From a virus (Duplodnaviria > Heunggongvirae > Uroviricota > Caudoviricetes), in IMG/VR virus record IMGVR_UViG_644736364_000003: 46,137 nt of DNA; one strand, written 5' to 3'. Positions within the stretch are counted from its first letter, which is position 1. Each line of letters begins with the position of its first letter. The notes under the pieces were generated by a model. The model had not been told where the DNA came from. It ran no database searches and worked only from the letters and a program-made list of their open reading frames with translations. This document shows, one piece after another, positions 3,966 through 16,335 of the stretch. Position numbers and translations under genes: made by a program.

Positions 3966-4611
3966 TTTGCTGCTCCTCATCATATCGACCCTGCAATGTC
4001 GGTTAGTTTCTCCACAAAACAGAGAAGAACACCTGCGGTGGTAGCCGCCCGGATGGATTGGGTTATGAGCCCGTCGTCCGATGATGTTCTTCTCTGTTTT
4101 GTAAAAAGAGCGGTACCAGCCGGAAGCAAGTGTACAAACTGGTACCGCCAAAGCAGTGGCTGTTGTGGTGACCGGTGCTGATCTCCGGCTTGCGGTTATT
4201 TCAGACTCTCACGGGCATTTAATTGCCCCGCCGAACAGCTCTTTTCCGCAATAGCTGCAATGTCTTTCGCGCATCAGCCTGCGCATTCACCACAACGCTG
4301 AGAGCACTTAGCCAGTTACGGCACCACACTTTGTCGCGGTTCCATAAATGCCCTCATCGTTGCACCCTGGTCTCTTCCCAGGCGTCAAACCGAATCGCCA
4401 CGCTGGTTAGGCGTCTTATCAGCATCCTCATTGACTTGCACATTCCGGCTATCTGGTTTGTTTGCCCGAGCAAGGAGTGGATTGTCCCCTTTAACGTCCC
4501 CAGACCGCTAACGACGCATGTGCCATACGCCGTGTTACAACCAAATTTTGTTAGTACCTTGTTTGTAGGTCTGGAGAGAAAGATAAAATGAAGTTGCGCA
4601 TTATGCAAGTG

Positions 4612-4634
4612 TTTTATTGCGAGATAAGCAATTT
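4612..4634. promoter_or_regulatory. Putative left operator (OL-like) repressor-binding site
   Basis: Motif TTTATTGCGAGATAAGCAAT nearly identical to a motif in the cI-cro intergenic region. Confidence 0.35.
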
Positions 4635-4687
4635 GGTGGGTAATGAAAAGCCACCTTCTGGTGGCTAATTGATGTTGAGGTAGGGGG

Positions 4688-5380
4688 TTAATTGTGTCGC
4701 TTAAGGGTCTGTGACTGACTGATTAAGACCTTTCCAAAGACCATAAACCGGTGTTCGTTTTCGCTGGTAATTCCCCATTCGCGGTAAATCTGATTATCAG
4801 AAATTACCAGCAGTTTATCAGGTATCATTTGCAGTCGTTTGACGTAAATTTTATCATCAAAACCAAATACATATATACCATCCCCATCAAACTGATTGAT
4901 ACTGATATCAACGAAGATGAGATCTCCTGGCTCAATGGTTGGACACATACTGTCCCCACGAACGTTGATAACTTTAATGTGATTTGCTGGTCGTCCACCA
5001 AACATCGATACAGCATTATCAGTTCTGTATTCAATGGCATGAATCACATCAATGACATCACCGCCCTGGATAAGGCCATTTCCCGCACTGGCACTGACAT
5101 CCAGCATTTCAATACGGAATACATCCTTCACCTGCGTAACATCCTCACTAATACTGTTTTTACATACAGTATTACTTTTGAGGTCTGAGGTAAAGAGATC
5201 AGCAATATCAACACCTAAGCTCCTGGCAATATTACTCAGGGCTTGTTCAGTGAATTGTTTCTGCTTACCTGTTTCGAGGCGCGAGATATTCGCCGCATCC
5301 ACTCCTATTGCTTCAGCGAGATCGGCGATTTTCATGTTCTTCGCCTGGCGAAGTTGTCTGACTCGATTTCCTATGTTCAT
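4688..5380 (-). CDS. cI: Prophage repressor, HTH-XRE plus S24 (LexA-like) peptidase domain
   Basis: 230 aa; N-terminal HTH (IADLAEAIGVDAANISRLETG), Ala-Gly cleavage site (ASAGNG), GDSM serine motif and downstream Lys (YVKRL). Confidence 0.85.
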   Translation of the reverse strand: MNIGNRVRQLRQAKNMKIADLAEAIGVDAANISRLETGKQKQFTEQALSNIARSLGVDIADLFTSDLKSNTVCKNSISEDVTQVKDVFRIEMLDVSASAGNGLIQGGDVIDVIHAIEYRTDNAVSMFGGRPANHIKVINVRGDSMCPTIEPGDLIFVDISINQFDGDGIYVFGFDDKIYVKRLQMIPDKLLVISDNQIYREWGITSENEHRFMVFGKVLISQSQTLKRHN

Positions 5381-6613: not shown

Positions 6614-6721
6614 TTCTGCCATTCCGGGACGTTACACTGTTCAGGCACCTTATAAAGCGGGTGTCGGGATTGGCGTCCTGGAATTGCATACGGCGACAAT
6701 TGGCGCGTTAGCGTCTTTTTT
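6610..6721 (+). promoter_or_regulatory. Leader element copy 1: sigma70-like promoter (TTGATT-17-TACACT) followed by intrinsic terminator hairpin (GGCGC-GTTA-GCGTC-T6); candidate short RNA/attenuator
   Basis: Promoter-like hexamers with 17-nt spacer; hairpin plus T-tract about 75 nt downstream; same architecture conserved in copy 2. Confidence 0.35.
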
Positions 6722-6887
6722 GTTGCTACAACTCAGCTATACCCAAATTATGGTGGGCTGGGTGGGGGCACCGAAAGGTGCGCCGGTTTCCGTATGCGCC
6801 GGTTACGCCAACCCTGCTCAGTTCACCACCAGCGAAATTGGCGTTTCCGGTGGTGGAAGTTATCCATTGCATACGGAGGCTGCCATC

Positions 6888-7475: not shown

Positions 7476-7587
7476 TTGATTCTGCAATTCCGGGACGTTA
7501 CACTGTTCAGGCACCTTATAAAGCGGGTGCCGGGATTGGCGTCCTGAAATTCGCACATGCGCATAACCGCGCTTCAGCGGTTTTTTT
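7476..7587 (+). promoter_or_regulatory. Leader element copy 2: promoter-like TTGATT-17-TACACT plus terminator hairpin (ACCGC-GCTTCA-GCGGT-T7)
   Basis: Same arrangement as copy 1; terminator stem differs in sequence but keeps pairing (compensatory changes). Confidence 0.35.
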
Positions 7588-7750
7588 GCGCACGTTTCCT
7601 CACATCCAAATTATGGTGGGGCGTGCAGGGGCATCGAAAGATGCGCCGGGGTCATGTGCGACCGGTTACGCCAACCCTGTACGTCTCACCACCTCTGTGA
7701 TTGGCGTCCCATGTGGTGAGTTTTCAAAATTCGCACATGAGGATGTCACT

Positions 7751-8517: not shown

Positions 8518-9332
8518 GTATGGAGCTGATGGTTAAAGCGATGAAAATTCGAGTGGGTAATCCATTGCGAAAACTGGTTCTGATCAAGCTGGCTGATAAT
8601 GCCAGCGATCAGGGTGAGTGCTGGCCCAGCTACCAGCATATTGCTGACCAGTGCGAGATTAGCAAACGTTCTGTGATGAATCATATTGCGGCCCTTTGTG
8701 AGTCCGGGCTGGTAAAAAAAGTCACCCGGAAAGGTGAAAAAGGTAACTCAAGTAATATCTATCTCCTTCATCTTGATGGTGCAGGAGATTCACTAGGGGG
8801 TAGTGCAAATAATTCACTATCTGGTGCAGCAAATTCACCAGGTAGTGCAGGAGTTGCACCAGGGGGTGGTGCAGGAGATTCACCCAGAACCAGTCACTCT
8901 TTTGAACCAGTCAAAGAACCAGTCAATGAACCAATAGCTGTTGGTGCATCTGCTGATGAGTCTGTGCGAGTTCGTTCAAACCGACCGGAATACTCTCCGG
9001 AGTTTGAGCAGGCATGGCTGGCATACCCCAAACGTGCTGGTGGCAATTCAAAATCTGCAGCCTTCAAAGCCTGGAAAGCCCGTTTGAATGAGGGGGTAAA
9101 ACCCGAAACCATGCTGGAAGGTGTGAAACGCTACGCGGGCTGGGTATCTGCGATGGGTAACAGCGGCACACAATTTGTGAAACAGGCTGTCACGTTCTTT
9201 GGTCCGGATCGTCATTTCGAAGAATCCTGGGAAGTTCCTGCGGTATCTGCAGCCAGACGCGAGGACCCGTACTTCAAAGCCAGTTACGACAACGTGGACT
9301 ACAGCCAGATCCCGGCAGGATTCAGGGGGTGA
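8514..9332 (+). CDS. Replication-initiator-like HTH DNA-binding protein with Gly/Ser-rich linker
   Basis: 272 aa from MSMELMVK after GGAGG; N-terminal HTH (PSYQHIADQCEISKRSVMNHIAALCESGLVKK); lies where lambdoid replication genes normally sit. Confidence 0.5.
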   Translation: MSMELMVKAMKIRVGNPLRKLVLIKLADNASDQGECWPSYQHIADQCEISKRSVMNHIAALCESGLVKKVTRKGEKGNSSNIYLLHLDGAGDSLGGSANNSLSGAANSPGSAGVAPGGGAGDSPRTSHSFEPVKEPVNEPIAVGASADESVRVRSNRPEYSPEFEQAWLAYPKRAGGNSKSAAFKAWKARLNEGVKPETMLEGVKRYAGWVSAMGNSGTQFVKQAVTFFGPDRHFEESWEVPAVSAARREDPYFKASYDNVDYSQIPAGFRG

Positions 9333-9334
9333 TC

Positions 9335-9823
9335 ATGAGTCTTTTGAATGAAGTTCAGAAATTCATTGAAGCCCATCCGGGGTGTACTTCCGGAGACATT
9401 GCGGATGCTTTTGCAGGTTACTCACGGCAGCGCGTTCTGCAGTCAGCAAGCAAGTTACGTCAGAGTGGGCGTGTGGCTCACCGTTGTGAAGGAGATACAC
9501 GCAGACATTTCCCGCGCCTGACTGAGAGAGCACAGGAGCCGGAACCACAACCAGTTCGTGAAACCAGACCTGTGCGCAATTTCTGTGTCGGCACTAACGA
9601 CCCGCAGGTGATTTTGTGCCTGACTCGCCAGGCGGAAGAACTGGAGTCTAGGGGCTTATTCCGTCGAGCTGCAACGGTGTGGATGGAGGCATTCCGTGAA
9701 AGCCACTCCCAGCCAGAACGAAACAATTTTCTGGCGCATCGTGAGCGGTGCTTACGGAAAAGCAGCAAGCGCGCTGCATCGGGTGAAGAGTGGTATCTGT
9801 CAGGGAATTACGTGGGGGCTTAA
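9335..9823 (+). CDS. PerC-like transcriptional activator family protein (putative)
   Basis: 162 aa; C-terminal segment LTRQAEELESRGLFRRAATVWMEAFRESH resembles PerC/Pch family as recalled. Confidence 0.4.
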   Translation: MSLLNEVQKFIEAHPGCTSGDIADAFAGYSRQRVLQSASKLRQSGRVAHRCEGDTRRHFPRLTERAQEPEPQPVRETRPVRNFCVGTNDPQVILCLTRQAEELESRGLFRRAATVWMEAFRESHSQPERNNFLAHRERCLRKSSKRAASGEEWYLSGNYVGA

Positions 9824-10476
9824 TGAGTAATAAATATTGCCAGGCGCTGGTGGAGCTGCGGAACAAACCAGCCCATGAACTGAAGGAAGTGGGCGATCAG
9901 TGGCGCACGCCGGACAACATTTTCTGGGGAATTAACACCCTGTTTGGCCCGTTTGTTCTGGATCTGTTCACTGATGGTGATAACGCCAAATGTGCCGCTT
10001 ATTACACTGCGGAAGACAACGCGCTGGCGCATGACTGGTCTGAACGTCTTGCGGAGCTTAAAGGTGCTGCCTTTGGTAATCCCCCGTACAGCCGCGCCAG
10101 TCAGCATGAGGGGCAATACATCACCGGCATGCGTTACATCATGAAACATGCCAGTGCCATGCGTGATAAAGGCGGGCGCTATGTTTTCCTGATCAAAGCT
10201 GCCACCAGCGAAGTGTGGTGGCCGGAAGATGCAGATCATATTGCTTTTATTCGCGGGCGTATTGGTTTTGAACTGCCTGCCTGGTTTATCCCGAAAGACG
10301 AAAAGCAGGTGCCAACAGGTGCTTTCTTCGCTGGTGCTATTGCTGTTTTCGACAAGACCTGGAAGGGACCGGCAATCAGCTACATAGGGCGCGATGAACT
10401 TGAGGCATGTGGTGAGGCGTTTCTGGCGCAGGTTCGCCAGCAGGCGGAAAAACTGGTCAGGGAGATGGCGGCATGA
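9823..10476 (+). CDS. Phage N6-adenine DNA methyltransferase (Dam-like, orphan)
   Basis: 217 aa; catalytic NPPY motif (GNPPYSRA); no adjacent restriction endonuclease. Confidence 0.8.
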   Translation: MSNKYCQALVELRNKPAHELKEVGDQWRTPDNIFWGINTLFGPFVLDLFTDGDNAKCAAYYTAEDNALAHDWSERLAELKGAAFGNPPYSRASQHEGQYITGMRYIMKHASAMRDKGGRYVFLIKAATSEVWWPEDADHIAFIRGRIGFELPAWFIPKDEKQVPTGAFFAGAIAVFDKTWKGPAISYIGRDELEACGEAFLAQVRQQAEKLVREMAA

Positions 10477-10799
10477 CGACGTTAACTCAATGCCAGCAGC
10501 AGGTGCTGGATATGCTGATTTCTTATCAGAAAGAACGTGGCTTCCCGCCAACCAATCAGGAGGTGGCAACCATGCTGGGATACCGTTCGGTGAATGCAGC
10601 GGTGGAGCATCTTCGCGCACTGGAGAAAAAAGGCGTCATCACGATAAAGCGTGGCGTGGCCCGGGGGATAACGCTTCATACTGCGATGAAGGACGACGAC
10701 AGCGAGGCGGTCGGGATTATCCGCGCACTGCTTGCCGGTGAGGAAAACGCAAGGCTGCGTGCAACCCACTGGTTACATGAGAGGGGCCTGAAAGTATGA
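10473..10799 (+). CDS. LexA N-terminal DNA-binding-domain protein (no peptidase domain)
   Basis: 108 aa; QQQVLDMLISYQKERGFPPTNQEVATMLGYRSVNAAVEHLRALEKKGVI closely parallels the LexA winged-helix DBD. Confidence 0.7.
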   Translation: MTTLTQCQQQVLDMLISYQKERGFPPTNQEVATMLGYRSVNAAVEHLRALEKKGVITIKRGVARGITLHTAMKDDDSEAVGIIRALLAGEENARLRATHWLHERGLKV

Positions 10800-13166: not shown

Positions 13167-13183
13167 TTTTGTGGAGAAAGTTG

Positions 13184-13555
13184 ATGCGTGATATTCAAAT
13201 GGTTCTTGAACGTTGGGGGGCATGGGTGGCAAATAATCACGAGGATGTGGAATGGTCATCTGTTGCTGCAGGTTTTAAGGGATTAATTCCTTCGAAAGTA
13301 AAATCCCGCCCGCAATGTAGCGATGACGATGGCCTGATCATTAGCTCTGCGATGACAGTTCTTAAGAAAAAGGAACCGTATCAATACGAATTACTGGAAA
13401 TGTATTATGTGTATGGGGTTACATTACGGGTGTTGGGGGTAAAACTGGGGATATCACTTAATCAGGTTGTTATCAGACTGCAGAAAGCTGAAGGGTTTAT
13501 TGACGGTTGTCTGGCAATGTTGGGGGTATCTTTAGAAATTGATTGTTACATATAG
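13184..13555 (+). CDS. Q: Late-gene antiterminator Q (small QuuD/phage-82-type)
   Basis: 123 aa from MRDIQMVLERWGAW with GGAG RBS; position immediately before late region. Confidence 0.65.
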   Translation: MRDIQMVLERWGAWVANNHEDVEWSSVAAGFKGLIPSKVKSRPQCSDDDGLIISSAMTVLKKKEPYQYELLEMYYVYGVTLRVLGVKLGISLNQVVIRLQKAEGFIDGCLAMLGVSLEIDCYI

Positions 13556-13630
13556 TAATAAATTCAATCAAAGTAAATAATCATATTTTATTATAACCTC
13601 CTGATGATACCTGTTCATTGGGAGGTTATT

Positions 13631-14248
13631 ATGGATAAAAATGTAGAGCATGTATTAGTTGATGCAATTGAAAATAAGCAATCTTTAACAGTCGTTTACT
13701 TAGGAGGGAGCCAGCCCGGAACATTAAGGAATATTTCTCCGATTAGTATAAATGGGGATAAATTGCGGGCAAGATGCCATAGTTCTGGAGCAGTAAAGGT
13801 TTTCAATCTTGGGAAAATACAGTTACCCAGTGACTCCTGCGCGGTATCTATGCACTATGGAGATTTAGAAGTTAAAGCTTATGAGACGATGCAGAGCGTA
13901 AATGACAACTTTCATGCCCTTTATCCTGAAGGACGATGGGGTGTTGATTTTAATGAGCATCGCTTTGCTTTATTTGATTTTTTTAAAAACGGGAAACGAA
14001 AAAAAACGGCATTTATGGCAATTGAGTTCAGGGAAAGAGATGAAGAGAAAATAATAACAGGTGTAACAATTGATATTGGTATATCTGGAACAGTGATTTC
14101 TGAGAAGTCCCGAATCCCAAAAAGACGACCATGGGTAGTGGTTGGTCCCGAACACGGAGAATACAGTACTTATTCAACTTTGGACAAGGCTGCTACAGCG
14201 TTTTTTGAGAGGCTTTCGTTGATAGCATCCGGCCTGGAAGATAATTGA
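13631..14248 (+). CDS. Cargo (moron) protein of unknown function with WYL-like N-terminal motif
   Basis: 205 aa; GGGAGG RBS; AT-rich relative to flanks; N-terminal pattern LTVVYLGG...LRNISPISI...LRARCHSSGAVKVFNLGKI fits WYL-domain consensus by eye. Confidence 0.45.
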   Translation: MDKNVEHVLVDAIENKQSLTVVYLGGSQPGTLRNISPISINGDKLRARCHSSGAVKVFNLGKIQLPSDSCAVSMHYGDLEVKAYETMQSVNDNFHALYPEGRWGVDFNEHRFALFDFFKNGKRKKTAFMAIEFRERDEEKIITGVTIDIGISGTVISEKSRIPKRRPWVVVGPEHGEYSTYSTLDKAATAFFERLSLIASGLEDN

Positions 14249-14377
14249 TTTTATGTTTGGTATTCAGAGTTCGCCGTGCTTAAGAAAGTCAAGATTCTAA
14301 AAATACTGAATGAGCTACTTGTGTTATAACAAAAATGCTATTAGTGTGTTAAGAGTGGTTACTTCGCCACACAACTT

Positions 14378-14402
14378 AAACCCGCCACTGAGCGGGTTTT
14401 TT
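14378..14402 (+). terminator. Rho-independent terminator (tR'-like candidate)
   Basis: AAACCCGC-cactga-GCGGGTTTTTT: 8-bp stem with GC core followed by T6. Confidence 0.7.
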
Positions 14403-14526
14403 GTACCTGTAAACTTGGTGCAGTACAGTAAACACGCTGGTGGTCGTGAATACTGGCTTTTTATCTTGCTGGCTTTTTAGACAAGAGTTATTGGTATGTC
14501 ACGTTAACCGGAAAGGGTAAAAAGAC

Positions 14527-14724
14527 ATGCTGAAACAGCAGGATATGACAGAAACCGCCAGAGTTGTGTTTGATGAATTAAGCGTTACCGAACCGGCGAC
14601 AGTCGGGGAGATTGCGCAGAATACTTACCTTTCACGCGAACGCTGCCAGTTAATACTGACCCAGCTTGTTATGGCGGGTCTGGCAGACTATCAGTGCGGT
14701 TGTTACAGACGCCTTCAGTCCTGA
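14527..14724 (+). CDS. Small putative winged-helix protein (65 aa)
   Basis: ORF with HTH-like segment ATVGEIAQNTYLSRERCQLILTQLVMAGLA; weak RBS. Confidence 0.35.
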   Translation: MLKQQDMTETARVVFDELSVTEPATVGEIAQNTYLSRERCQLILTQLVMAGLADYQCGCYRRLQS

Positions 14725-14858
14725 AGGCTTTTTATTTGTGGTGAATGGGCGGCTGGTGGGGGGGCGACACCTGTCAGTCCTTTGCTTATGTGTTGATGAT
14801 AATTTACCTTTTGGGGCTATAATTGAGCTAACCAATTGCTAATGAAAGTAAAATTATA

Positions 14859-15566
14859 ATGGCTGTTGTCTGTTCAGTTATCATGGTTTGCTCCCCAATT
14901 AATATTTTTCTTGAAAAGGATACGTTGTCACTTAAGCCAGGCTCAGTTGTTCTGGCCACCAAATGCATCAGGGAGCTTTTCCTTATGCATTATGGCAAAG
15001 TTAAAATTGTCGATATAAGCGAATCCGTCGTAAGTCAATATCTGGAAAGTCAGCATAAGCTGACGAGGACTCGTCTGACTGACATTCCGCTTTACCTGTT
15101 GCTGGAACCCAACAATCCTGCGTTGGCTGCGGCTTTAATTACCAGCCAGGGATTTTCCGGAGAGGCCACGGATATGTTTCTTATGATGGCCTGCCTGTCT
15201 CTGTTTGAAACAGATGAACGGATGTCATTGTTTTTAAGTGGATGTTTATCCAGCATAAGTGCCAAAGTCAGGGCGATAATTCAGACAGATATATCAGCAA
15301 GCTGGACGCTTGGTGCGATTGCTCTACAGTTGCATATGAGTGAGAGTTTGTTAAAGACAAAACTGAAAAATGAAGGGGGCATGTTCAGTCGCTTGTTGCT
15401 GGAAGAGCGGATGCGTGTTGCTGTAAATATGTTATGTTCCCGGCATGGACAGGCTATAGCAGAAAAATGCGGTTATTCAAGCAGGTCCTACTTTATTTCT
15501 GTATTTCACCGCTATTATGGCTTCCCGCCAGACAGATATGTATCCAGGCAAGGGCTTGATTATTGA
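14859..15566 (+). CDS. AraC-family transcriptional regulator (AppY/GadX/YdeO-like prophage moron)
   Basis: 235 aa; C-terminal AraC HTH pair (...YSSRSYFISVFHRYYGFPPDRY); N-terminus MAVVCSVIMVC resembles AppY MDYVCSVVFIC as recalled; low GC. Confidence 0.8.
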   Translation: MAVVCSVIMVCSPINIFLEKDTLSLKPGSVVLATKCIRELFLMHYGKVKIVDISESVVSQYLESQHKLTRTRLTDIPLYLLLEPNNPALAAALITSQGFSGEATDMFLMMACLSLFETDERMSLFLSGCLSSISAKVRAIIQTDISASWTLGAIALQLHMSESLLKTKLKNEGGMFSRLLLEERMRVAVNMLCSRHGQAIAEKCGYSSRSYFISVFHRYYGFPPDRYVSRQGLDY

Positions 15567-15594
15567 TTTTCATCTGATTATTATTTTTTGGCTC

Positions 15595-15670
15595 GGCCCT
15601 TTAGCTCAGTGGTGAGAGCGAGCGATTCATAATCGCCAGGTCGCTGGTTCAAATCCAGCAAGGGCCACCA
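15595..15670 (+). tRNA. ileZ: tRNA with CAU anticodon (Ile2 lysidine-type, or Met)
   Basis: Cloverleaf folds by hand: acceptor GGCCCTT/AAGGGCC, D-arm GCTC..GAGC, anticodon loop TTCATAA, T-loop GGTTCAAATCC, 3' CCA; resembles ileX. Confidence 0.8.
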
Positions 15671-15677
15671 TCACATA

Positions 15678-15754
15678 CCGCCATTAGCTCATCAGGATAG
15701 AGCGCCAGCCTTCGAAGCTGGTTGCGCGGGGTTCGAGTCCTCGATGGCGGTCCA
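15678..15754 (+). tRNA. tRNA-Arg (anticodon UCG)
   Basis: Acceptor CCGCCAT/ATGGCGG, anticodon stem CCAGC/GCTGG with loop CTTCGAA, T-loop GGTTCGAGTCC, CCA end. Confidence 0.8.
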
Positions 15755-15767
15755 TTATCTGTACCCT

Positions 15768-15844
15768 GCGTTATTAGCTCAGCCGGACAGAGCAATTGCC
15801 TTCTAAGCAATCGGTCACTGGTTCGAATCCAGTACAACGCGCCA
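15768..15844 (+). tRNA. tRNA-Arg (anticodon UCU)
   Basis: Acceptor GCGTTAT/ACAACGC (one A-C mismatch), anticodon stem ATTGC/GCAAT loop CTTCTAA, T-loop GGTTCGAATCC, CCA end. Confidence 0.8.
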
Positions 15845-15886: not shown

Positions 15887-16335
15887 TGTCTCACAATTCA
15901 GACGGTTGACAGTTGTCTGTTTTGCGGGGAGTTTGTTAAAAGAAACTGGCATGGTGAATCCCCCTGTGCGGAGGGGCAATCAGCAACTGGTGTTTTGTCA
16001 CCGACCCTTATCCTTTCTGTGCGGGTTCAGGTGCTGATACTGAACTCACCGGGAGGCACCCGGCATCATGTGCATGATGATACAGATACGCGGCTTTAGC
16101 CCCTCTCCGGAGGGGCTTTCTTGTGGGCAAAAAAAGCCCGAGTGGGTTCGGGCAACAGCATGAGATATACATTTTTATAATCGAATGGATTTTAACCAGA
16201 ATTCATAAGGCTGCGCAACTGCGCGGTCTTTTTCGAATTGCGGGCTGTCGTCTCTCTTCTGCCATTGTCCTGTAACTTCCGGACTTCAGCCCGCTCCTTA
16301 TTTTACTCACAATATTATCCCGGCCGGGAGGATTC

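Follow-up and report, generated by a model that had tools for sequence, protein, structure and literature searches.

ORF205, a WYL-domain protein encoded downstream of Q in a lambdoid Escherichia coli prophage: a candidate sensor of single-stranded nucleic acid

The WYL proteins that sense single-stranded DNA (ssDNA), such as DriD of Caulobacter, CapW, BrxR and PafBC, consist of an N-terminal winged helix-turn-helix (wHTH) domain, a WYL domain and a C-terminal WCX domain, and to our knowledge all of those studied so far are transcription factors. WYL modules without a helix-turn-helix (HTH) are represented by the accessory WYL domain of the Thermotoga PIF1 helicase and by the Cas13d accessory protein WYL1, in which the WYL domain accompanies a helicase core or an RHH domain and the protein has a known partner enzyme. 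Here we describe ORF205, the 205-amino-acid (aa) product of an open reading frame (ORF) at positions 13631-14248 on the plus strand of IMG/VR virus record IMGVR_UViG_644736364_000003, a stretch of 46,137 nucleotides (nt) that is referred to as the window throughout. ORF205 has the sensor domain of the DriD-type proteins, neither their wHTH nor their WCX domain, and a C-terminal domain of its own. In our best reading, to which we give even chances, ORF205 would be a sensor or binder of single-stranded nucleic acid that acts via protein contacts and has a role tied to lysogeny; its most likely ligand would be ssDNA.

The WYL domain and the C-terminal domain of ORF205

An earlier note on this DNA, made by inspection of the letters, had proposed a WYL fold for the N-terminal part of the 205-aa protein, and this proposal was confirmed by matching the family profile to the PDB and by fold comparison. 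The domain covers residues 1-65 (13631-13825, plus strand), in which one alpha helix is followed by a five-stranded Sm/SH3-like barrel, and PGAP also names the product a WYL domain-containing protein. When the family profile was compared with the PDB, chains of DriD were matched at E = 6.6e-5, followed by BrxR and CapW-like proteins. The Pfam WYL model (PF13280) matched 40 of 82 family members at E ≤ 0.01 (best E = 4.6e-6). An AlphaFold2 model of ORF205 (predicted local distance difference test score, pLDDT, 87) consisted of two domains with a disordered linker between them, which resembles the DriD-type proteins, where a second domain follows the WYL domain via a flexible linker.

In the profile alignment, the DriD segment FRYEGGSTPGRTREVTP was paired with the family motif YxGGSQPGxxRxIxP, and Y23, S27 and R33 of ORF205 therefore correspond to Tyr168, Ser172 and Arg178 of DriD, which hydrogen-bond the ssDNA backbone (PMC9186387). 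A loop of the form YxGGSxPGxxRxxxP with Tyr, Ser and Arg phosphate contacts is common to DriD, CapW, BrxR, PafBC and ORF205, and so are a conserved basic and a conserved aromatic residue on the last strand (K56 and F58 in ORF205). The predicted conserved ligand pocket is made up of Y23, S27, R33, K44, K56 and F58, in which K44 probably occupies the position of the WYL tyrosine and K56/F58 those of DriD Arg204/Trp206; residues suited to ligand contact thus appear to be present in beta2, the beta2-beta3 loop and beta5. In an alignment of 82 diverse members, Y23, R33 and K56 of the pocket were invariant, as were G26 and A47 outside it, and F58 and S27 were conserved in 95% and 87% of the members, respectively.

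The C-terminal domain (residues 87-205 and the stop codon; 13889-14248, plus strand) is an alpha/beta sandwich in which, according to the AlphaFold2 model, an antiparallel sheet of up to seven strands is preceded by one helix and followed by a long C-terminal one. It is family-specific, and the 82-sequence alignment showed the motifs FKNGK (118-122), RPW (166-168) and LDxAxxxF. Neither the single sequence of ORF205 nor a profile of its C-terminal domain gave a significant sequence match in the PDB, and a Foldseek search against viral structures returned only low TM-scores; the C-terminal part, which had been described as unrecognisable, indeed comprises about 120 aa that match nothing by sequence.

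No HTH family of Pfam or NCBIfam matched ORF205, and the protein starts directly with helix alpha1 of the WYL domain, so that the lack of an HTH reported in the earlier note stands. The possibility that the C-terminal domain is a WCX dimerisation domain was rejected: no WCX similarity was detectable, and the order of a helix, about seven strands and a helix is unlike the beta-alpha-beta-beta-alpha-beta-alpha topology of the DriD WCX domain. Having neither an HTH nor a WCX domain, ORF205 therefore cannot act as a WYL transcription factor, and it lies outside the wHTH-WYL-WCX regulators even though its sensor domain is the same. Moreover, ORF205 differs from the DriD-type proteins in being encoded by a lone phage-carried gene and not beside a regulated operon, and from PIF1 and WYL1 in having neither a fused enzyme nor a conserved neighbour.

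The C-terminal domain showed no signature of a nuclease, pore, NADase or other effector and lacked a conserved acidic/histidine catalytic set, and PADLOC-DB 2.0 matched ORF205 only with generic Cas-associated WYL models (E = 1e-3 to 1e-5). No defence gene was found beside ORF205 or the homologues examined, the neighbours being Q, ORF65, repressors and integrases. The earlier suggestion that ORF205 regulates a phage-defence module was not upheld, given the lack of a DNA-binding domain and of flanking defence genes and the generic nature of the PADLOC matches.

An exhaustive HMMER search for homologues gave 490 cluster representatives (50% identity) at E ≤ 1e-3, of which 186 reached E ≤ 1e-10. 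With few exceptions the representatives were 185-210 aa long and aligned end to end, the full-length ones at 25-45% identity, and the ratio of nonsynonymous to synonymous substitution (dN/dS) against a 72%-identical E. coli variant was 0.23; to judge from its sequence, ORF205 is a real gene under selection. Further members were sought by a degenerate DNA pattern for YxGGSQPGxxRxIxP in one-genome-per-species data and in IMG/VR. The former yielded 23 full-length members from many phyla (sources including Vibrio, Shewanella, Marinobacter, Pseudoalteromonas, Salinivibrio and Jiella as well as Planctomycetota, Nitrospinaceae, Thermodesulfobacteriota and Vicinamibacterales), and the latter 66 motif hits, more than 45 of which were the E. 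coli gene. Among sequenced phage isolates only two carry a family member, to which one plasmid-like P2-type element can be added. A literature search by protein accessions and PHROG family found no paper. The earlier note was right in singling out a protein not yet characterised and in assigning its fold.

The family also includes fused and paired variants. A BRCT domain is fused to the N-terminus in P2-like elements of Serratia and Enterobacter, and marine-phage variants of 356-374 aa carry an extra C-terminal extension of about 170 aa, for which no Pfam or PDB match was found. On one viral contig, two neighbouring genes have only the N-terminal WYL module in common; the loci with fused or paired variants are L010 8001-8921, L015 4725-5591, L014 2006-3115 and L024 2332-5396. 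Other proteins bearing the motif of the N-terminal domain carry partner domains that gave no clue.

Genomic position and expression signals of ORF205

Across phages the family member is a lone accessory gene, and no conserved partner gene was seen in the loci examined. Outside E. coli its usual neighbours are immunity genes of the CI/Cro type or, in P2-like phages, the repressor and integrase genes on either side. In a Shewanella lambdoid prophage the gene adjoins an S24 CI repressor gene and cro; Pseudoalteromonas phage PY3 has a long variant placed between its integrase and LexA-type repressor genes; the BRCT-fused variant of the Serratia and Enterobacter P2-like elements is flanked by the C repressor and integrase genes, with one orientation for all three; and on two IMG/VR contigs the gene is tail to tail with an adjoining S24 repressor gene. 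Among 87 further neighbours from 27 loci, the top families were Peptidase_S24 (4), YdaS (4) and P22_Cro (3), and the majority could be assigned to no family. Other positions were after tail-fibre genes beside Rha, after a terminase gene and in small chromosomal islets. It is chiefly the recurrent link to immunity or lysogeny modules that hints at the biological role.

Stretch 13400-15700 of the window is 100% identical to chromosomal DNA of E. coli MS7163, CEA212U, N53 and N62. The matching prophage annotated in N53 is complete and lambdoid and adjoins a tRNA-Arg gene; its 5' part encodes integrase, a CI-like XRE repressor, Rha, a PerC-family regulator, RusA, KilA-N, DUF968 and Q, and its 3' part carries the block studied here, three tRNAs, a NanS-p-type esterase gene, lysis, terminase, head and tail genes and Lom. 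It is an intact prophage with the layout of a Shiga toxin (Stx) phage and without stx.

The block is bounded on the 5' side by the gene for the 128-aa antiterminator Q (13169-13555, plus strand; PF06530, E = 1.5e-47) and on the 3' side by the three tRNAs (15595-15844), as had been described, and all three ORFs claimed before were found in it on the plus strand, namely ORF205 (an in-frame ATG further 5' at 13604 would give 214 aa), ORF65 (65 aa; 14527-14724) and an AraC-type gene (235 aa; 14859-15566). RefSeq calls the three genes alike in identical prophages. The description of the block as AT-rich holds only in part: the GC content is truly low from about 13300, within the 3' half of Q, to about 14350 (0.34-0.40) and over the AraC gene (0.39-0.45) compared to the flanks (0.51-0.60), but it is uneven, reaching 0.46-0.50 over ORF65. 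The whole block was present in only 26 of 5426 complete E. coli genomes, Q and ORF205 together were found in 71 genomes, and the ORF65 and tRNA parts were matched in thousands of genomes plus 303 phage records. Since the distributions of its parts differ, the block is a mosaic of at least three compositional and evolutionary pieces, and not the single 2-kb cargo island that had been proposed.

This Q allele was always linked to ORF205 in the IMG/VR loci. In nearly all E. coli loci, as judged on IMG/VR contigs that reach far enough upstream, the start of ORF205 comes 462 nt (474 nt in the variant) after that of this Q allele, and ORF205 is followed by varying ORF65 alleles, then by psr or a DNA methyltransferase gene, and sometimes by stx2. 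The Stx2 prophage of E. coli JNE120393 (L012 3475-7073) carries Q, the 72%-identical ORF205 variant, ORF65, a DNA methyltransferase gene, tRNAs and stx2A. In two IMG/VR E. coli prophages (L046 and L050) the gap between Q and ORF205 is 0.8-1.4 kb longer, and in L046 ORF205 is in two pieces, suggesting an insertion element.

The late promoter PR' was located by comparison with Sakai Sp5, whose PR' start site was mapped by differential RNA sequencing (dRNA-seq) by Sy et al., with tR' 258 nt downstream (PMC7547250). In current coordinates this start lies 22 nt past the Q stop codon, behind the -10 element TATCAT, and the U-tract of tR' falls exactly at +258, which served as a cross-check of the position. 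The sequence that begins at the Sp5 start site, AAGAGTGGTTAC.T.GCCAC leading into a GC hairpin and a U run, is kept in the window (14351-14402), in JNE120393 and in Sakai Sp4, with differing sequences further upstream. The hexamers before it are TAGTGT, TAATCT and TATGCT, respectively, and T1, A2 and T6 are kept in all four phages, so that the window contains both a conserved transcribed leader and a preceding -10 element of a Stx-phage PR'. The initial transcribed block of the window (AAGAGTGGTTACTTCGCCAC... to the GC hairpin and U6; 14351-14405, plus strand) was delimited by the four-phage alignment, by folding and by compensatory stem changes. From homology to Sp5, we place PR' at 14319-14354 (plus strand; -35 TTGTGT 14319-14324, -10 TAGTGT 14342-14347, start at about 14354), downstream of ORF205, with fair confidence; against this placement, the window hexamers are weak (3/6 each) and were missed by the promoter scan, so that the promoter was placed by homology only.

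The terminator that the earlier note had marked at 14378-14402 is real: a GC hairpin runs into U6, and the 48 nt that include it (14365-14412) fold with −13.8 kcal/mol. It lies at about +25 to +49 of the PR' transcript and is kept in the three other phages with compensatory changes. With PR' placed as above, it would therefore be the first hairpin of the late leader, and ORF205 would sit between Q and PR'. A location of ORF205 between PR' and tR' was rejected on the Sp5 comparison, and the proposal that ORF205 is transcribed from the late promoter up to the terminator did not hold, as the Sp5-type PR' block and its -10 element lie downstream of the gene.

The Q proteins of all four phages belong to PF06530, those of Sp5 and Sp4 being 56-59% identical to the window Q, and the gap between Q and PR' behaves as a variable cargo slot, which holds ORF205 in the window, a CAAX/Abi-type protease gene in Sp4 and nothing in Sp5 (Sakai Sp4 L013 12088-13057 compared with Sakai Sp5 L083 1825-1846). 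In the same Sp4 segment an apparent remnant of the 3' end of Q is seen beside PR'. Compared to the PR'-StxS-tR' leader of Sp5, the window shares the PF06530 Q, the initial block with the first hairpin, and the tRNA trio and nanS-p downstream, whereas it has a 618-bp gene between Q and PR', weaker hexamers, no stx, and ORF65 after the first hairpin, where Sp5 has the StxS body and tR'.

Both the ATG of ORF205 and its Shine-Dalgarno sequence (GGGAGG, 13620-13625) are paired within a 20-bp leader hairpin (13587-13635, plus strand; from RNA folding), which has a folding energy of −23 kcal/mol (z = −5.7). The hairpin is retained in the 72%-identical variant (−21.6 kcal/mol, z = −5.0), where a double compensatory change has turned the start codon AUG into GUG and the U facing it into C; four further changes affect one side of the stem only, and none of these is disruptive. 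The 5' arm contains a -10-like TATTAT (13589-13594), in which T1, A2 and T6 are kept in the variant (TACAGT). As the terminator scan detected nothing between Q and ORF205, early transcripts that read through Q should extend over ORF205. One idea is that the hairpin gates translation, in that transcripts starting just past TATTAT would be without most of the 5' arm and could be translated, and read-through ones could not.

A putative sensor of single-stranded nucleic acid and alternative roles

From the folds, residue conservation, architecture, synteny and promoter homology described above, we infer how ORF205 might bind its ligand, pass on a signal and be timed in its expression. ORF205 would be cargo inserted between Q and PR', and form the first of three modules of the block. 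Its WYL domain would keep the phosphate and base contacts by which DriD, CapW and PafBC bind ssDNA, and basic and aromatic residues of the C-terminal domain (FKNGK and RPW) may help binding. A signal would then be relayed by protein contacts or by occupying the nucleic acid, and translation would be gated by the conserved hairpin over the ribosome-binding site. Because the family member is a lone gene in or beside immunity modules, its role is probably tied to lysogen physiology, either to DNA damage and induction or to incoming DNA.

Several points weigh against this assignment. ORF205 itself matches the Pfam WYL model only at E = 0.0085 and 16.5 bits, under the cut-off of 21.8; the W-Y-L tripeptide of the DriD-type proteins is K-L-R in ORF205; the counterpart of DriD Arg176 is variable across the family; and the equivalences in beta4 and beta5 were derived from strand register and the Pfam motif without structural superposition. 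The geometry between the two domains is uncertain (predicted template modelling score, pTM, 0.58), and other WYL domains bind single-stranded RNA (WYL1) or, in one report, c-di-GMP. In addition, ORF205 of E. coli stands at the end of the early operon, outside the immunity region, so that the link to lysogeny is extrapolated from other phages.

As an alternative, ORF205 could be a single-gene superinfection-exclusion or abortive-infection protein of lysogens, whose WYL domain detects ssDNA or replication intermediates of an incoming phage and whose C-terminal domain triggers the block. The gene recurs in classical exclusion slots, beside cI/cro and in the P2 C-int operon, the Q-to-PR' slot of Sakai Sp4 holds a CAAX/Abi-like protease gene, and known WYL proteins are linked to defence (PMC9122601, PMC11662680). 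However, the PADLOC matches are to generic WYL models only, and the C-terminal domain lacks an effector signature and a conserved acidic/histidine catalytic set; we consider this explanation unlikely.

Still less probable is a lytic function as an accessory of nin-region DNA metabolism, expressed with Q, in which ORF205 would bind ssDNA at replication or recombination intermediates like the mediators of the Orf/NinB type. The conserved ssDNA-contact residues agree with such a function, as do the position of the gene directly after those for RusA, KilA-N, a DUF968/HNH protein and Q with no terminator between Q and ORF205, and the BRCT fusions, which point to DNA-end or repair contexts. On the other hand, the gene resides in the immunity/integrase module of other phages and not among replication or recombination genes, and the hairpin over the ribosome-binding site would silence early read-through transcripts.

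We also regard it as quite improbable that ORF205 is a late-leader moron, expressed constitutively from a PR' right after Q as far as the 14378-14402 terminator. In lysogens PR' is constitutively active (PMC7547250), the Sp5 PR' starts 22 nt past the Q stop codon, and the -10-like element (TATTAT; TACAGT in the variant) is conserved 34 nt past the Q stop codon of the window; but in the window and JNE120393 the block at the Sp5 start site and its -10 element come only after ORF205, as they follow the CAAX gene in Sp4, no -35 element is found at a usable spacing before 13589-13594, and in the variant all sequence upstream of the -10-like element is displaced by an 11-bp insertion. Finally, a counter-defence decoy, which would compete for the ssDNA cue or for a partner and blunt derepression of BrxR- or CapW-type-controlled or other ssDNA-triggered responses, would fit a phage-carried family that has kept the sensor domain, lost the output domain and has ssDNA-sensing regulators themselves as its closest sequence matches, but it is very unlikely, as ssDNA is no scarce small ligand and is hard to sequester, no WCX domain is available for heterodimers with host regulators, the gene is not in an early anti-defence position, and no precedent is known.

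The rest of the block and the meaning of the finding

The second module would comprise PR', the transcribed leader with its hairpin terminator, ORF65 and a second terminator, and would represent the late-operon leader of many Stx phages. ORF65 gave weak matches to winged-helix proteins (TrmB, MarR and DprA) and matched phrog_331 (E = 6e-37), a family without known function. Over its first 49 residues ORF65 is 100% identical to Sakai ECs_1086, and the stretch from the leader hairpin through ORF65 has about 89-93% DNA identity in many Stx2 phages and in phiP27. An intrinsic terminator lies over the ORF65 stop codon (14711-14735, plus strand; found by terminator scan and folding) and is kept in Sp4 and phiSTEC1575. 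By these sequence identities, ORF65 is part of a late-leader cassette common to many Stx and lambdoid phages. The notion that ORF65 might be the missing HTH partner, split off from ORF205, was rejected, as the two distributions differ: among the 303 phage records hit, many match the ORF65 stretch and none has ORF205. Outside E. coli, ORF65 was not beside the ORF205 homologues examined.

The third module would be a psr gene with its own promoter, whose close relatives PsrA and PsrB activate gadE and hdeA. The 235-aa AraC-type protein (14859-15566, plus strand; HTH_AraC, E = 2.4e-13) is a PsrA/PsrB-type allele that is identical to Sakai PsrA (ECs_1087) at 173 of 195 residues (89%), and its gene lies, as in Sakai Sp4, in a lambdoid prophage after Q and just 5' of ileZ-argN-argO. 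PsrA is ECs1087 (PMC13502914); PsrA and PsrB are mutually 90% identical; besides activating gadE and hdeA, they increase acid resistance and act as repressors of type III secretion (PMC10877973). The promoter-like site 5' of psr (ATGATA, 16-nt spacer, TATAAT; 14796-14823, plus strand) had the top plus-strand score, with 10 of 12 positions matched, and is nearly invariant in Sp4 and phiSTEC1575.

The order and orientation of the ORF65-like gene, psr and ileZ-argN-argO are the same as in O157:H7, and the upstream 126 nt, the promoter-like site and the first 42 codons are conserved with psrA. The window allele differs by 22 substitutions and a 2-residue deletion, and its host is a non-O157 extraintestinal E. 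coli. Against the YdeO model (NCBIfam NF007407) the protein, a relative of YdeO, scored 106 bits compared to a cut-off of 348 (full-length match, residues 1-227 on model positions 1-230 of 253). Its identification as AppY, YdeO or GadX itself was rejected, since its scores stay under the equivalog cut-offs and its identity is that of a Psr allele. The previous assignment to the AppY/GadX/YdeO type was accordingly right as to an acid-resistance, host-reprogramming type of regulator, and needs correction only in that the gene is a PsrA/PsrB allele in the same slot.

The tRNA cluster downstream of psr (15595-15844, plus strand; CAT, TCG and TCT anticodons by ARAGORN) is equivalent to ileZ-argN-argO of Stx phages. 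The first of these tRNAs (15595-15670) is called tRNA-Met (CAT) by ARAGORN and tRNA-Ile (cat), of the ileZ type, in Sakai and in some RefSeq records of the same prophage. Between the tRNAs and nanS-p, a full-length match to the small RNA (sRNA) STnc100 (131.7 bits; 15920-16128, plus strand) ends at a terminator, and directly after it a match to an AsxR/AgvB-type anti-sRNA was found on the minus strand (16131-16183; 63 bits, equal to the gathering score). STnc100 was considered as the PR' short RNA and rejected, since the homologous leader is found 1.5 kb upstream of it and it appears in the literature only as a prophage sRNA beside esterase genes.

Further upstream in the window, an isrK-like RNA with a C4 antisense RNA after it, the latter of the type controlling ant in P1/P7, occurs as two tandem copies at 6645-6833 and 7511-7696 (plus strand) in the region of duplicated Rha genes, which suggests a duplicated antirepressor control module. 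A nin-like region at about 9200-10700, positioned by correspondence with L001 1930-3400, encodes a PerC-family regulator, an N6-adenine methyltransferase and a short LexA-family protein of 108 aa.

The novel part of the block is ORF205, as the PR' leader and the PsrA-type regulator are known biology. The psr finding places a known acid-resistance regulator family in prophages of extraintestinal E. coli, and for the annotation of lambdoid phages it follows from the position of ORF205 that a gene after Q is not necessarily part of the late transcript. ORF205 itself presents a WYL sensor of the ssDNA type that is detached from a DNA-binding output and joined to a C-terminal domain without known relatives; if it binds ssDNA, it would give access to ways other than LexA/CI cleavage in which prophages perceive DNA damage or invading DNA. 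We put forward, as a speculation that we consider unlikely, that ORF205 founds a class of stand-alone phage ssDNA sensors, in which the WYL pocket would read DNA damage or incoming DNA and the C-terminal domain would act on a protein partner; tentative candidates for this partner are RecA, SSB, an exclusion target and the CI-like repressor of the prophage (about 4500-5200 in the window). Should this be the case, the leader hairpin would limit the synthesis of ORF205 to transcripts starting inside the hairpin, and ssDNA would feed into the lysogeny switch or the superinfection immunity of temperate phages by a route other than RecA-mediated repressor cleavage.

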